Shown: piece after piece, positions 5,330 to 13,636 of the stretch
Layout of the letters: each line of letters opens with the position of its first letter
Position numbering within the stretch: the stretch's first letter is position 1
DNA from: Promethearchaeota archaeon
GTDB lineage: Archaea > Asgardarchaeota > Lokiarchaeia > Sigyniarchaeales > SOKP01
Assembly (NCBI GenBank): GCA_048940925.1
Contig: JBHLOC010000003.1
Span: 32,001 to 96,000, forward strand
Direction: 5' to 3'
Length of the DNA: 64,000 bases
Notes under the pieces: model-generated
What the model saw: the letters and a program-made list of their open reading frames with translations, nothing else
What the model was told of the DNA's origin: nothing
Databases searched by the model: none
Position numbers and translations under genes: made by a program

Positions 5330-6031
5330 ATATCTCAAGATGAAATGAAAGAGATTACAGAAAATCTCGATGAAAAAATTGTACAAAGTTTACAAGAAAA
5401 AGTTTCCGAATATTCTGTTAAAATTAGTGAGCTTGCAGAAAAACTATCTAAAAAAAGTGAAGAGTTAGAAAATTTGACAAAAAATAATAGTGATTTAAAT
5501 TCCAAACTAGAAGAAACAGAATTAAATTTAGAATCTAAAGTGAGCGAACTAAGTAAACTAAATTCGGAGATATATGACTTGAAAAAAACTATTTCTTTAC
5601 AAGAGAATGAAATTAATAAGTTAAATACAAAAGAGAGCAAATTGAATTTAAGAGATGAAGAATTAGTTAATTCACTCCAAGAAAAAGATAATATTATAAA
5701 AGAATTAAATAATAACGTTACAGCTAAGGAAAATAAAATCAAAGGACTAAATGATAAACTGGCAGTCAACGATAAAGTTATTCTTGACCAACAAAATAAA
5801 TTAGAACAGTTAGAAGCAGAATTGAATAAGGCTAAAACAGAATTATCAGAATTAAAACCTCAGGAACCAACAATATATACAAGTGAAGAAAGATTAGTTT
5901 GCCCCCGCTGTGGTGCGAAAGGGAAAGATCTAAAAACTGAAGAAGATAAAAGTAAAGTTCTTAGTTATGTTGGACATAGTCCTATGTACGCGAAGAAAAA
6001 TGTGTGTAAAAAGTGTGGTTATGACTTTTAA
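5330..6031 (+). CDS. Long coiled-coil protein with C-terminal Zn ribbon (probable ATA start at 5330; first ATG at 5345)
   Basis: Heptad-rich E/K/L/N sequence; CPRCG...CKKCG; SD GAGGTG at 5316-5321. Confidence 0.75.
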   Translation: MSQDEMKEITENLDEKIVQSLQEKVSEYSVKISELAEKLSKKSEELENLTKNNSDLNSKLEETELNLESKVSELSKLNSEIYDLKKTISLQENEINKLNTKESKLNLRDEELVNSLQEKDNIIKELNNNVTAKENKIKGLNDKLAVNDKVILDQQNKLEQLEAELNKAKTELSELKPQEPTIYTSEERLVCPRCGAKGKDLKTEEDKSKVLSYVGHSPMYAKKNVCKKCGYDF

Positions 6032-9186: not shown

Positions 9187-9624
9187 TTAGATATTCATCT
9201 TATATAAGTTCTTATTTGGGATAAAACTCATCATGATTAAATCATCTCTTATCTCCCAACCTAGATTTTGATAAAAACTAACTACTTCTTGATTATATTT
9301 TTCAATAAATAAGTGAATTTTGTGAGCCCCAATAATACGAAATCTTTCAATCAATTCATCCATTATCTTTTTACCATATCCTTTTTTTTGGTGATCCGGA
9401 TCTACTGCAAGATGGTGAACATAGCCTCTTCTCCCATCGAATCCCCCTATTACAACACATATGACTTTTTTGTGTAATTTTCCAATTAAAAAAAGATTTG
9501 GATTTCTCTGAAGCATTTTATTTATTTCTTGTCTTGTATCTGAGGAACCTACATTTATTCCTGCTTTCCTCCAGAGCTTAATAATTTCATCATATAAATC
9601 CATAGTATATTTTTCAATCTTCAT
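9187..9624 (-). CDS. GNAT acetyltransferase (YpeA-like)
   Basis: GGFDGRRGYVHHLAVDPDHQKKGYG; FYQNLGW. Confidence 0.9.
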   Translation of the reverse strand: MKIEKYTMDLYDEIIKLWRKAGINVGSSDTRQEINKMLQRNPNLFLIGKLHKKVICVVIGGFDGRRGYVHHLAVDPDHQKKGYGKKIMDELIERFRIIGAHKIHLFIEKYNQEVVSFYQNLGWEIRDDLIMMSFIPNKNLYKMNI

Positions 9625-9911: not shown

Positions 9912-11504
9912 ATGAGTAATGAGATGAAAGTACTTGAAGATCTAGCAAAATTAACTGAGAAAGAATTTAATAAGAGAAACTATCTTGTAAAAAATGATTT
10001 TCTTTTTTGCTATTTTGTCGAAGACGAGTCTGTAAAATATCTCGGTATGGATTTAGCAAAACTAAACCTAGAAGAAAGAAACTTTGAACTCGTTGAAGAA
10101 TCTATTAAAAAACTTCAAAGGTTAAAAGGACTCAGCATCAGATATCCTAAAAATAGAGAATTTCCTGACTGGTTCAAAAAGTTTAAGGATATGGAATATT
10201 TAAGTTTGAAGAATACCAATTTGCACACCATACCTGAATGGATTAAAGAATTCAAGAAGATTAGCTATTTAAACTTAGAGTCCAATGATATTACTATTTT
10301 ACCTGAATGGTTAACAACTTTAAATGAGTTAAAAGAATTTCTAATACGAGGCAACTTTAACCTTGAGTGGAATGATAAGAATCTCAATATTCTAAAAACT
10401 CTTAATAATAAAAGTATAAAAATAACTGCTCCAAGGTTATTTCAATTTATAATTCAATATGATTTTGAACAAAACAAAATAGAAATAATTAAAGAACTCG
10501 AAAGGGAAAACTCTGAAAAAGAGAAGCAACATTATTATGTTAATCCTATTAACATTAAAATAGAACATGGAAATGTTGTTGAATGGCGAATGTTTCAATA
10601 CAACATTAAAGCTTTACCGGAAAACTTCGGAATCTTTAAAAATCTAAGATCCTTAACGATTTCCGGCACACCTATCGAATATTTACCTAATTCTTTCGGG
10701 GATTTAACAAATCTTAAGTTTCTTGATTTGTCTAATAATCGTCTTAAATCTCTGCCAGATTCATTTTCTAATTTAACCTTAATTACTAAATTAAATTTAA
10801 GCAATAATCAATTTACTGAGATTCCTACGGCTTTATGGGCTCTTAAAGAATTAACTGAATTGAATTTAAGTAACAATCCCCTTGGTACTGAGGAAAAAAA
10901 TATTATACAGAAAGTTCCTGATTTAATCAGAGAATATCTTAGAAAGAAAGCCACGATAAAAATTTTTATCTCTCATGCAGTTGTAGATTATGAACCCTAT
11001 CGCATAGGAGAGCTTGTAGAATATCTTAAAAAACAAAAAGAAATCTCAGAGGTCTTTTTTTGTGAAGAAGACCTTGCAGGAAATATCGATGAATGGATGT
11101 TGGATACAGTACAAAAATGCCAACTATTATTATTCATTGCAACAAAAAAGTCAGTGTTTGACTCAGAAGATTGTTCAAATGAATTACAGCTTGCCGACAA
11201 GTTCTCTATTCCAGTTATTCCTATAAAAGGTTATAATGTAGATTGGTCAGATTTAGCAGAAAGAAATCTTTCTCGTGAATTAGGCTTAGTATTTAATAAA
11301 GATAATTTTGATGCGTTTTGTGAGGATTTGTATAGATACATTGAGAATTTCAAGCGTGAGATTGATTTAATGGGGAAAGAAGAACGGAGACAAGGAATTA
11401 TTGACATCTATGAACGATTTCGATTAATTTTAGATGAAGCTCTAGGAGAAATCAACAGAAAATTAAATACACTGGAAGAAAGAATTACAAAACTAGAAAG
11501 ATAA
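9912..11504 (+). CDS. Leucine-rich repeat + TIR domain protein
   Basis: Multiple LxxLxLxxNxL repeats; TIR box IFISHA ... SEDCSNELQLA ... IPVIPI; C-terminal coiled coil. Confidence 0.88.
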   Translation: MSNEMKVLEDLAKLTEKEFNKRNYLVKNDFLFCYFVEDESVKYLGMDLAKLNLEERNFELVEESIKKLQRLKGLSIRYPKNREFPDWFKKFKDMEYLSLKNTNLHTIPEWIKEFKKISYLNLESNDITILPEWLTTLNELKEFLIRGNFNLEWNDKNLNILKTLNNKSIKITAPRLFQFIIQYDFEQNKIEIIKELERENSEKEKQHYYVNPINIKIEHGNVVEWRMFQYNIKALPENFGIFKNLRSLTISGTPIEYLPNSFGDLTNLKFLDLSNNRLKSLPDSFSNLTLITKLNLSNNQFTEIPTALWALKELTELNLSNNPLGTEEKNIIQKVPDLIREYLRKKATIKIFISHAVVDYEPYRIGELVEYLKKQKEISEVFFCEEDLAGNIDEWMLDTVQKCQLLLFIATKKSVFDSEDCSNELQLADKFSIPVIPIKGYNVDWSDLAERNLSRELGLVFNKDNFDAFCEDLYRYIENFKREIDLMGKEERRQGIIDIYERFRLILDEALGEINRKLNTLEERITKLER

Positions 11505-11560: not shown

Positions 11561-13636
11561 TTATAATTGTATGGATAAATTGCTAATTTTCTTTCTAATT
11601 TCAGTTTTATCTTTAATAATTTTCTTGATATAGTCTGAAATTTCTATTCTTTTATTAATATCAGTGGGGATTGGCAATATCACTTTCATTATACGATTTC
11701 CTATAGTAGCAATTGTCCCTTGAATGAAAGTGATTGCCAGAATCTGTTTTTGAACAATATCCAAATTCAAGAGGTATAAAAGAAGGTAAGAATCAATATA
11801 TTCTTTATTCTCTAATACTTTTATTTGGAAAATATGGCTTTGAGTTATTATTTTTGTATCTAATTCGGTAATATAAGCTGTTTTCCCTATTAAATTAGGA
11901 CCTCCATCTTTAACTAATAGGATGTCCCCAACTTCTATATTTTGCTTATTCTTATATTGTTCATATACTTCTTCACTCGTTTTTTTGTATGAATCTAAGT
12001 TTATTTCCCAGTTATTAATTTCACTCGTTCGAATGAAAGGGATTTTTCCAAGACCATAAAGGTGAGAACCAATTTCATCCCCTCGAGGAAGATATCCTCC
12101 TTTATTAGTATAGATGATTTTCTTTTCAACTAAATCTTTAATAGTTACTAGTTCAAACTCTTTATTATTTGAAAGTGTCTTTAAAGTCTTTTCCACTCCA
12201 GTATAGTACATTGGTATGAAAATTTTATTGTTAATCTCCCTATACTTTATCTTAAATACTTTTTGCTCTTTTGAATAATCAAATTCTTCAGCTTCCTCTA
12301 ACTTTAAATGTAAATCTATTAAATCATCATTAACAATTGGTTTTCCTTCATTATCCAATAGTTTACTTCCATCATTATTTAGTTTATATAGAAGCTTTCC
12401 GTCTTTATCATGTCCTACATTTTCAACTATAGCAAAATCTATAGTATAATCATTTGGGATATCTTTTAACTTCTGAAAAAACAGGATACTTGTTTTATTG
12501 CATGTATATGGTTGAAAAGTATTTTGATCTAATGAAATAATTCCTAATATTTTACCATTTGAGACTAAATATTCCCAAATATAACGTTCAGAAGGATTTC
12601 CAAAAATTCCTTCTGGTAAGACAATGCCTAATTTACCATTATTTTTAAGAAGTTGAATGCATCTTTCAATAAATAACACTTGAGGGGGCTGTTGTTTGAC
12701 CAATTTCTCTTGCATTTCCCATTTATTATTAATATCTCTCCAGGTGTGACCTAATTTATAATTTTTAAGGATTTCTTTATCATTTAAGGGAATCTTTGCT
12801 CCAAAAGGAGGATTAGTAAAAATAAATTCAAATGAATTATCTTGAATGGCTTGTTTTGCTTTAACTCTATAACTTTCCGGATCTAAGGAGTCCTCACAAA
12901 AAATATTTGACTTACCTCCACTTAATACGTCCAAGTATAATTTAGCAATTTTTGAGAGAAATAAATCTTTATCTATACCATATAGATTCCTGATAATCTT
13001 AAGTTTGCTTTCTTCAGAATCTAATTTTGACCATAAATGATCTTGAGCTTCAAGCAAGAATCCTCCATGCCCACATGCAGGATCCAAAATTCTTGAATTA
13101 AGTTCAGGATTTAAATAATTTACCATAAATTTTACAACATTTGGAGGAGTAAAAAATTGACCTCCTTCATCTTTTAATATTTTACTTACAAAAATCTCAA
13201 AAGCATCACTTAAAATATCTTTAGATGATTGAAGGAGAGAAATGTGTTGTAATTCTTTTACTATTAAATAAACAAGGTCTTGATTTAAGTTGATTTGGTC
13301 ATTATTATCAAAAAACTCATAATATTTTTTTCTAACTTTTACTTCAAAAAAAGAATTTATTCTTTCAAAAAAATCAGTTTTCTGTTCTCCATCTTTTATA
13401 CAAAATTCTACCTCTTCGTAAGGTTTTTTACCAATTTCATCAACCAACTTGCAAAGCAAAAGATTAATCATTTGCTTTGAACGTGTTCTTGTGTCAGTAT
13501 CAGTATATTTCAGTTTACCATATAAGTGTTGATTTATTAAGTTGAATATTTTTTTTAAATTAGTTGATGGTACTAAATCTTTTTTCTTTAATCCTTTAGA
13601 TTTCTTCTCTACAAAATCAGTAATTTTAATTGGCAT
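11561..13636 (-). CDS. N6-adenine DNA methyltransferase (HsdM-like) fused to one target-recognition (HsdS-like) domain
   Basis: GQFFTP, ILDPACGHGGFL, NPPF, GIVLPEG; C-terminal IPFIRTSEI...GDILLVKDG...IGKTA TRD pattern. Confidence 0.9.
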   Translation of the reverse strand: MPIKITDFVEKKSKGLKKKDLVPSTNLKKIFNLINQHLYGKLKYTDTDTRTRSKQMINLLLCKLVDEIGKKPYEEVEFCIKDGEQKTDFFERINSFFEVKVRKKYYEFFDNNDQINLNQDLVYLIVKELQHISLLQSSKDILSDAFEIFVSKILKDEGGQFFTPPNVVKFMVNYLNPELNSRILDPACGHGGFLLEAQDHLWSKLDSEESKLKIIRNLYGIDKDLFLSKIAKLYLDVLSGGKSNIFCEDSLDPESYRVKAKQAIQDNSFEFIFTNPPFGAKIPLNDKEILKNYKLGHTWRDINNKWEMQEKLVKQQPPQVLFIERCIQLLKNNGKLGIVLPEGIFGNPSERYIWEYLVSNGKILGIISLDQNTFQPYTCNKTSILFFQKLKDIPNDYTIDFAIVENVGHDKDGKLLYKLNNDGSKLLDNEGKPIVNDDLIDLHLKLEEAEEFDYSKEQKVFKIKYREINNKIFIPMYYTGVEKTLKTLSNNKEFELVTIKDLVEKKIIYTNKGGYLPRGDEIGSHLYGLGKIPFIRTSEINNWEINLDSYKKTSEEVYEQYKNKQNIEVGDILLVKDGGPNLIGKTAYITELDTKIITQSHIFQIKVLENKEYIDSYLLLYLLNLDIVQKQILAITFIQGTIATIGNRIMKVILPIPTDINKRIEISDYIKKIIKDKTEIRKKISNLSIQL

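Follow-up and report, generated by a model that had tools for sequence, protein, structure and literature searches.

What does an archaeon do with a protein that runs from leucine-rich repeats (LRRs) straight into a TIR domain? TIR signalling is common to bacterial, plant and animal immunity, and archaeal TIRs have barely been studied. We analysed a 64,000-nucleotide stretch of the genome of a Promethearchaeota archaeon (the window) that encodes such a protein, here called LRR-TIR, asking how it is built, whether its TIR domain is likely to be an enzyme and whether its surroundings mark it as a defence gene.

LRR Pfam families match the whole protein strongly (LRR_8, E 5e-21), with two blocks of 23-residue repeats at residues ~69-150 and ~222-325, and an AlphaFold model of the whole chain places all 530 residues in two capped LRR modules, the TIR domain and a tail helix. 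Pfam and the model thus confirmed the order given by a sequence-only reading of the locus, two LRR blocks and then a TIR domain at about 10950-11350. Modules 1 and 2 align to each other (E 1e-9), marking a duplicated cap-plus-LRR unit, and the repeats of module 2 are of the 23-residue cytoplasmic (Roco/SHOC2-like) type. The protein contains no hydrophobic segment (the maximum 19-residue Kyte-Doolittle mean is 0.76), and a membrane segment at a hydropathy of 2.2 or above occurs in none of the 121 close homologues. Pfam found neither an NTPase family (NB-ARC/NACHT or other P-loop) nor a Roc-COR tandem in LRR-TIR; the model leaves no residues over for the former and likewise contains no Roc-COR tandem. 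The earlier statement that the protein has no transmembrane and no NTPase domain is therefore borne out by hydropathy, Pfam and the model, and its terminal coiled coil corresponds to a single long helix whose heptad register is 90% hydrophobic, predicted to be coiled-coil-like. LRR-TIR is a soluble single-chain protein, a candidate sensor, in which a leucine-rich-repeat part is joined to a TIR domain. We rejected an artefact or misassembly because more than 100 independent records share the architecture.

Table 1. Features of the LRR-TIR locus, in window coordinates
Feature	Position	Strand	Remarks
LRR-TIR gene, 530 aa, soluble	9912..11504	+	full-length AlphaFold model pLDDT 90.5
Module 1 (residues 1-175): helix/beta-hairpin cap, ~4 LRRs, capping helix	9912..10436	+	fastest-evolving part
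Module 2 (residues 176-347): second cap, 5 LRRs, conserved C-cap running into TIR	10437..10952	+	
TIR domain (residues 348-484), TIR_2 type	10953..11363	+	80% identity among homologues, dN/dS ~0.11
Asp420, position of the WxxxE tryptophan	11169..11171	+	invariant in close homologues
Glu424, catalytic position, helix alphaC	11181..11183	+	121/121 close homologues
C-terminal amphipathic helix, heptad pattern (residues 489-530)	11376..11501	+	first half nearly invariant
Orphan N6-adenine methyltransferase fused to specificity domain, no nuclease domain	11561..13636	-	convergent neighbour, Pfam/PADLOC
GNAT acetyltransferase, divergent neighbour, part of conserved housekeeping locus	9187..9624	-	8/21 distinct loci

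The TIR domain is a divergent one. Pfam detects it only when the domain is cut out, as TIR_2 at residues 351-441 and barely over the cut-off (29.4 vs 28 bits, E 1e-6). Modelled together with the tail (pLDDT 85), it adopts the five-strand/five-helix TIR topology around a five-stranded parallel sheet. Compared with solved TIRs (VIA), the model matched SPARTA TIR-APAZ best (Z 15.2 across 127 residues, 2.3 Å), with RPV1 at 14.8, SARM1 at 14.1 and the related nucleotide hydrolase DNPH1 below the true TIRs at 13.1, although these fold scores do not separate TIR classes. The best profile match was a TIR-TPR protein (PDB 9m0n, E 1.3e-7); a single-sequence search of the PDB found no TIR, the TIR relatives coming from profile and fold searches. 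Atlas searches returned only generic bacterial TIR clusters by feature (scores <0.9) and only LRR matches by fold (TM <0.4). For the full model, Foldseek ranked the Chlorobium Roco LRR first and also listed Leptospira and SHOC2 LRRs, all at low TM scores; TLR ectodomains are absent from the best 50 fold matches, which excludes nothing.

The sequence-only reading rested its catalytic claim on an intact glutamate (in the motif SEDCSNEL) and named conservation of that residue in homologues among the points on which its reading could fail. Glu424 is intact, lies on helix alphaC and aligns gap-free with the Glu of TLR2, TLR6, Cat1 and 9m0n, the Glu of TIR-1 also aligning. It is invariant among the 121 close homologues and is kept in 157 of 165 TIR domains family-wide, including 40 of 40 from membrane members and 100 of 107 from LRR members. 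The eight Glu-less domains all fall in one long-branch group of a quick tree, and because the losses are confined in this way, the Glu-bearing copies appear to be selected for the residue. S354, H355, E385, S418 and C421 in the pocket region are likewise invariant in the close homologues, and conservation of the TIR surface is high. Glu424 alone is weak evidence for catalysis. More than 70% of all TIRs carry this Glu, TLR1/2/6/10 included, and its presence does not correlate with reported activity (PMC7075850); when 154 Glu-bearing eukaryotic TIRs were assayed with cyclic isomers as the target, only 25 gave a detectable product (bioRxiv 2026.04.20.719644). As judged from sequence conservation, the retained Glu and the strong purifying selection on the TIR domain together favour catalysis.

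Four positions before the Glu (E-4), Asp420 replaces the Trp of the WxxxE motif. The residue is Asp in 121 of 121 close homologues and Asp, Ala or Ser family-wide, aromatics being missing from the common states. By alignment, TIR-1, Cat1, TLR2, TLR6 and 9m0n all have Trp here, as does AbTir (W204), and all cyclase TIRs surveyed by Manik et al. carry an aromatic at the position; when it is removed, the product becomes linear ADPR or the enzyme is less active. Loss of the Trp left AbTir and SARM1 with reduced activity and L6 and ROQ1 with none (bioRxiv 2022.05.07.491051). From the residues observed we infer that, with Asp in place of the aromatic, LRR-TIR is unlikely to make a cyclic ADPR isomer or to signal through one. 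If active, it should yield linear ADPR or show weak activity, not produce a Thoeris- or plant-type cyclic messenger. Asp420 could also mark a weak or inactive enzyme, since Trp loss has those effects in the four proteins above.

A variable sensor atop a conserved effector is supported by comparison of substitution rates along the chain. Relative rates are ~1.5 and ~0.9 for the LRR modules vs 0.6 for the TIR domain; module 1 changes ~2.4 times as fast as the TIR and is only 34-44% identical to its homologues, and dN/dS is 0.11 for the TIR vs 0.21 for the LRR region. Among exposed LRR positions, those on the concave face change faster than those on the convex face (1.95 vs 1.30, p = 0.006), as expected of a binding surface; positive selection on the concave sites was not shown (dN/dS 0.35 among seven close pairs). 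These rates would fit a binding face with drifting specificity, an arms race not being proven. The tail, which distant family members swap for another helical tail, had been read as the means of oligomerisation. In AbTir, the coiled coil does the opposite of what was assumed for this tail: it holds an inactive dimer and inhibits the NADase (bioRxiv 2026.10.06.757174). By that precedent, the LRR-TIR tail is as likely to restrain the TIR as to activate it.

To place the protein, we surveyed its relatives. LRR content is shared by 140 close homologues, of which the named ones are Asgard (mostly Promethearchaeota/Lokiarchaeota) or from sediment metagenomes, and the wider family comprises 484 representatives at 50% clustering, with named members from Lokiarchaeota, Promethearchaeota and Helarchaeota. 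Within the host's family, 30 of 126 genomes carry an orthologue (at least 69% identity over TIR plus tail). A profile of the TIR detected the TIR family in 55 of 77 genomes of Lokiarchaeia families vs 1 of 223 other Asgard genomes, counts that come from incomplete genomes with the top candidates per genome scored; the family is therefore a lineage-specific expansion, not a pan-Asgard trait. Unrelated TIR_2 proteins occur in other Asgard families. A single-protein contig scan recovered 21 loci, almost all of them from records with Promethearchaeota/Asgard or uncultured-archaeon titles; the one record titled as a bacterium (L094, Nanopelagicaceae bacterium) is probably mistitled, its coordinates matching G038 of the host's family. 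The viral contigs and plasmids searched held no relative of LRR-TIR. No longer fused form such as Roco-TIR scored, a weak negative given that long family members do exist, and Roc and COR are absent from the Pfam lists of 120 close homologues.

The host genome has 11 TIR genes with varied sensors. Four encode soluble LRR-TIRs, one a protein with four membrane helices, and six a protein in which an N-terminal hydrophobic segment and a large ectodomain precede a membrane helix and a C-terminal TIR. Five of these six ectodomains match NosD/beta-helix, solute-binding, Ig-like or propeller families, the sixth being without a match, and none of the membrane forms carries an LRR array. Distant relatives add LVIVD/TSP3 ectodomains, TPR-LRR-TIR proteins and tandem TIRs. 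Across the family, shuffling has joined this TIR domain to LRR arrays, to TPRs and to membrane receptors whose ectodomains are of the beta-helix, solute-binding, propeller or Ig-like kind. On a quick tree (142 columns), membrane and LRR forms are clustered, not separate, and well-supported branches force at least three changes of membrane label; mixed in this way, the TIR acts like an output module that can be moved between sensors. Solute-binding and similar ectodomains would suggest general sensing no less than immunity.

Several other members of the family and its surroundings deserve record. A tandem LRR-TIR pair with overlapping stop and start lies at L012:7305-12085 (G000 contig C18, 49304-54084, minus strand), its upstream gene (793 aa) without and its downstream gene (800 aa) with the catalytic Glu; at least 10 relatives likewise have a Glu-less and a Glu-bearing gene of similar size on a single contig, an arrangement that recalls paired sensor/executor receptors. 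Five clustered membrane TIR genes, all with the Glu, occupy L013:7663-12453 and L014:341-11077 (G000 contig C34): four combine a large ectodomain with a membrane helix, a true single-pass receptor topology without LRRs, and one is a four-helix form. At L016:6123-9797 and L017:1088-4519, an SBP_bac_5 ectodomain and a Peripla_BP_6 plus beta-helix ectodomain are joined via a membrane helix to a TIR, making these fusions candidate nutrient or peptide receptors. P0122, P0264 and P0245 are members with three or four tandem TIRs, or in one case TPRs, LRRs and two TIRs, and are candidate adaptors. G000 also encodes ~22 ORFs with at least three LRR motifs, mostly without a TIR.

The gene had been described as lying tail-to-tail with a restriction-modification-derived gene, in the manner of defence genes. 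The neighbour is as described, a methyltransferase-specificity fusion on the opposite strand; the defence setting did not hold up. Of 126 family genomes, 105 have the methyltransferase, mostly in single copy at 62-81% identity, and it is almost absent outside the host family in the class sample; at that frequency it behaves like a core orphan methylase, possibly a domesticated one. HSDR_N_2 was not found in the host genome. LRR-TIR adjoins the methyltransferase in 13 of the 30 orthologue-bearing genomes. Across the 21 distinct loci, the methyltransferase is linked to it at 9, Alba at 9 and GNAT at 8, and because GNAT and Alba are linked about as often, shared locus ancestry explains the methyltransferase linkage; we therefore rejected defence linkage through this near-core gene. 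At other loci, the genes around LRR-TIR are those of histidine biosynthesis, CODH/ACS, cysteine desulfurase, ferredoxin, flavoprotein and fucosidase. Among 143 neighbour clusters from the 21 loci, the top PADLOC matches were to methyltransferase, ATPase and cysteine desulfurase models and the Pfam picture was metabolic, so the expected enrichment of homologues near defence genes was not seen in PADLOC and Pfam matches at these loci, taken without a genome-wide background. Locus GC is 27-29% vs 29.6% for the genome, and across relatives the gene occupies several different chromosomal positions. A horizontal island was rejected because GC is typical and synteny conserved. Nothing in the surroundings of LRR-TIR marks an antiviral gene; its patchy presence and several chromosomal positions may leave room for a defence role. 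Two further observations concern neighbours: in the relative G076 (L048:4476-7004), one of the 21 loci, a longer, type IIG-like enzyme with HSDR_N_2 and N6-methyltransferase domains replaces the orphan beside LRR-TIR, and at 5345-6031 of the window lies a long coiled-coil protein ending in a zinc ribbon, found at the same locus in two relatives.

Searches for known defence partners gave little. The LRR-TIR protein has no PADLOC match; of 118 family domains, 22 give weak hits to PADLOC ThsB models (best E ~3e-7). No thsA-type effector lies beside LRR-TIR or its orthologues, whose neighbours are GNAT, methyltransferase and metabolic genes. A genome search for a ThsA effector (SLOG/STALD or Macro) gave no match, its control searches being blank too; the genome does hold two long proteins with N-terminal SIR2_2 that are not linked to TIR genes (L076 and L077; G000 C24:39833-42994 and C35:23488-25617). 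A caspase search of the genome had no match, and a promoter/terminator scan, run with a bacterial model, stayed at chance level.

Comparison with characterised systems narrows the assignment. The enzymatic TIRs (SPARTA TIR-APAZ, SARM1/TIR-1, RUN1/RPV1/RPS4, AbTir and Cat1) have the fold in common with LRR-TIR (Z 13-15), together with the alphaC Glu, a FISH-type first strand and, probably, the need for self-association. Identity is only 14-23%, however; TIR-1, Cat1, 9m0n and AbTir have the E-4 Trp that LRR-TIR lacks, and their class is regulated by Argonaute/APAZ, ARM-SAM, NB-ARC or CARF parts in place of an N-terminal LRR array. Toll-like receptors share the LRR-then-TIR order and, in TLR2 and TLR6, the Glu position, but they have a signal peptide and a membrane helix between LRR and TIR. 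LRR-TIR has neither, so its LRRs are cytosolic; its repeats are of 23 residues with best fold matches to Roco, Leptospira and SHOC2, and the membrane members of its family, unlike TLRs, carry non-LRR ectodomains. The Toll-like label thus survives as a statement of domain order and fails as one of TLR membership, and with the TIR family confined to Lokiarchaeia, TLR ancestry is without support. Thoeris ThsB shares a Glu-bearing TIR, and a minority of the family gives weak ThsB profile matches, but in LRR-TIR the TIR is fused to an LRR sensor, the aromatic associated with cyclisation is missing, and the surrounding genes are of housekeeping type and do not include ThsA. TIR-NLRs (plant TNLs and bacterial TIR-STAND-repeat proteins) likewise place an intracellular repeat sensor and a TIR in one chain; they have an NTPase switch, absent here, and an N-terminal TIR, whereas that of LRR-TIR is C-terminal to the repeats. 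Prokaryotic Roco proteins (LRR-Roc-COR) have LRRs of similar type, as in Chlorobium Roco, joined to the Roc and COR that LRR-TIR is without, and the bacterial coiled-coil TIRs AbTir and TcpB share a TIR with a long helical appendage, which in LRR-TIR is C-terminal. LRR-TIR is not a TLR, NLR, Roco protein or Thoeris member; its mode of action is probably that of an enzymatic TIR to which a repeat sensor has been fused.

We give about even chances to a model in which LRR-TIR would be an LRR-gated, non-cyclising NAD+ hydrolase within a lineage-specific sensor network. The two LRR modules would bind an intracellular protein ligand on their concave faces, and binding would lift a restraint imposed by the LRR C-cap, the tail helix or both. 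The freed TIRs would then associate head to tail, as in AbTir and SARM1, forming a composite active site in which Glu424 would hydrolyse NAD+ to nicotinamide and non-cyclic ADP-ribose; LRR-TIR would thus be one output node of the Lokiarchaeia-specific TIR family. The enzymatic part is supported because the best fold matches are enzymatic TIRs (SPARTA, RPV1/RUN1, SARM1, AbTir); against the model as a whole, neither a ligand nor a downstream ADPR reader was identified. Should the mechanism hold, ordinary stress, contact or nutrient signalling has a slightly better than even chance of being the trigger, and a foreign or infection ligand a chance just short of even. What stands of the single-chain, pattern-sensing, NAD-cleaving receptor first proposed is the Loki-type Asgard host, the soluble LRR-then-TIR chain, the conserved Glu and the variable sensor part; signalling of the cADPR type is unlikely, given Asp420, and the defence context does not stand.

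The enzymatic reading competes most directly with a non-enzymatic scaffold, which we regard as unlikely, in which TIR-TIR contacts as in most TLRs and MyD88 link membrane TIR receptors to LRR-held partners and the Glu is structural. The missing WxxxE Trp, the same Glu in TLR2 and TLR6, a genome that pairs membrane TIR receptors with soluble TIR proteins (one of them Glu-less), tandem multi-TIR members such as P0122 and the high surface conservation all suit a scaffold. They have to be set against a Glu kept in 157 of 165 domains across very different architectures and lost in one long-branch group, against best fold matches that are enzymes and against a report that even the TLR4 TIR is catalytic. 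If the domain is an enzyme, its substrate might be something other than free NAD+: NAD-capped RNA, a nucleic acid (2',3'-cyclic NMP synthesis, as by plant L7) or a nucleotide N-glycoside. The invariant Cys421 occupies the position of the Cys on which 2',3'-cNMP synthesis by flax L7 depends, but this Cys is also frequent in the TIRs of TLRs; TIRs from bacteria and archaea are able to strip nicotinamide from NAD-RNA (PMC10937652), but in AbTir such decapping needs the Trp that is missing here; and the DNPH1 match, at Z 13.1, falls below true TIRs. We hold another substrate to be improbable.

Two further alternatives concern the biological role of the protein. In the strong form of the sequence-only reading, LRR-TIR is a dedicated antiviral receptor in a defence context, activated by its coiled coil and making a cyclic ADPR isomer in the manner of Thoeris or plant NLRs. 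LRRs joined to a Glu-bearing TIR, the patchy distribution (30 of 126 family genomes, at several chromosomal positions), the faster concave LRR sites, the weak ThsB matches of 22 of 118 family domains and the complete type IIG enzyme adjoining the gene in one relative all speak for it. With no aromatic at the cyclisation position, no PADLOC match for the protein, no ThsA-type effector nearby, metabolic neighbours, a genome-typical GC and an inhibitory coiled coil in AbTir, we think there is little chance that it is right. That LRR-TIR instead forms a guard pair with the adjacent methyltransferase, monitoring it or its inhibitor and firing on attack, is more improbable still: adjacency is found in 13 of 30 genomes, in more than one genus, and was retained after local rearrangement in one, but the methyltransferase occurs in 105 of 126 genomes, mostly without LRR-TIR, its linkage to LRR-TIR (9 loci) is about as frequent as that of Alba (9) or GNAT (8), and the LRR-TIR and methyltransferase genes are convergent and not co-transcribed.

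LRR-TIR is a real and apparently undescribed variant of TIR sensor proteins. In the literature searched, which did not extend to subscription papers, we found no description of the LRR-TIR family and no paper joining Lokiarchaea with TIR domains, and the Asgard defence surveys searched do not mention LRR-TIR proteins. A repeat sensor wired straight to a TIR, with no NTPase switch, offers a testable case, and the Asp-for-Trp active-site variant carries a clear product prediction. The family does not show an origin of TLRs from Asgard archaea, and we make no such claim because searches of the other Asgard classes recovered almost none of it; the LRR-TIR order and the ectodomain-membrane-TIR topology, the parts from which TLRs are built, appear to have arisen by convergence in this Asgard lineage. 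Tentatively, and with the odds against it, Lokiarchaeia may have independently built an innate-immune-like network of surface ectodomain-membrane-TIR receptors, cytosolic LRR-TIRs and paired active/pseudo-TIR LRR proteins, all signalling through a DCxxE TIR and a non-cyclic NAD-derived product, that would detect viruses, parasites or partner cells.
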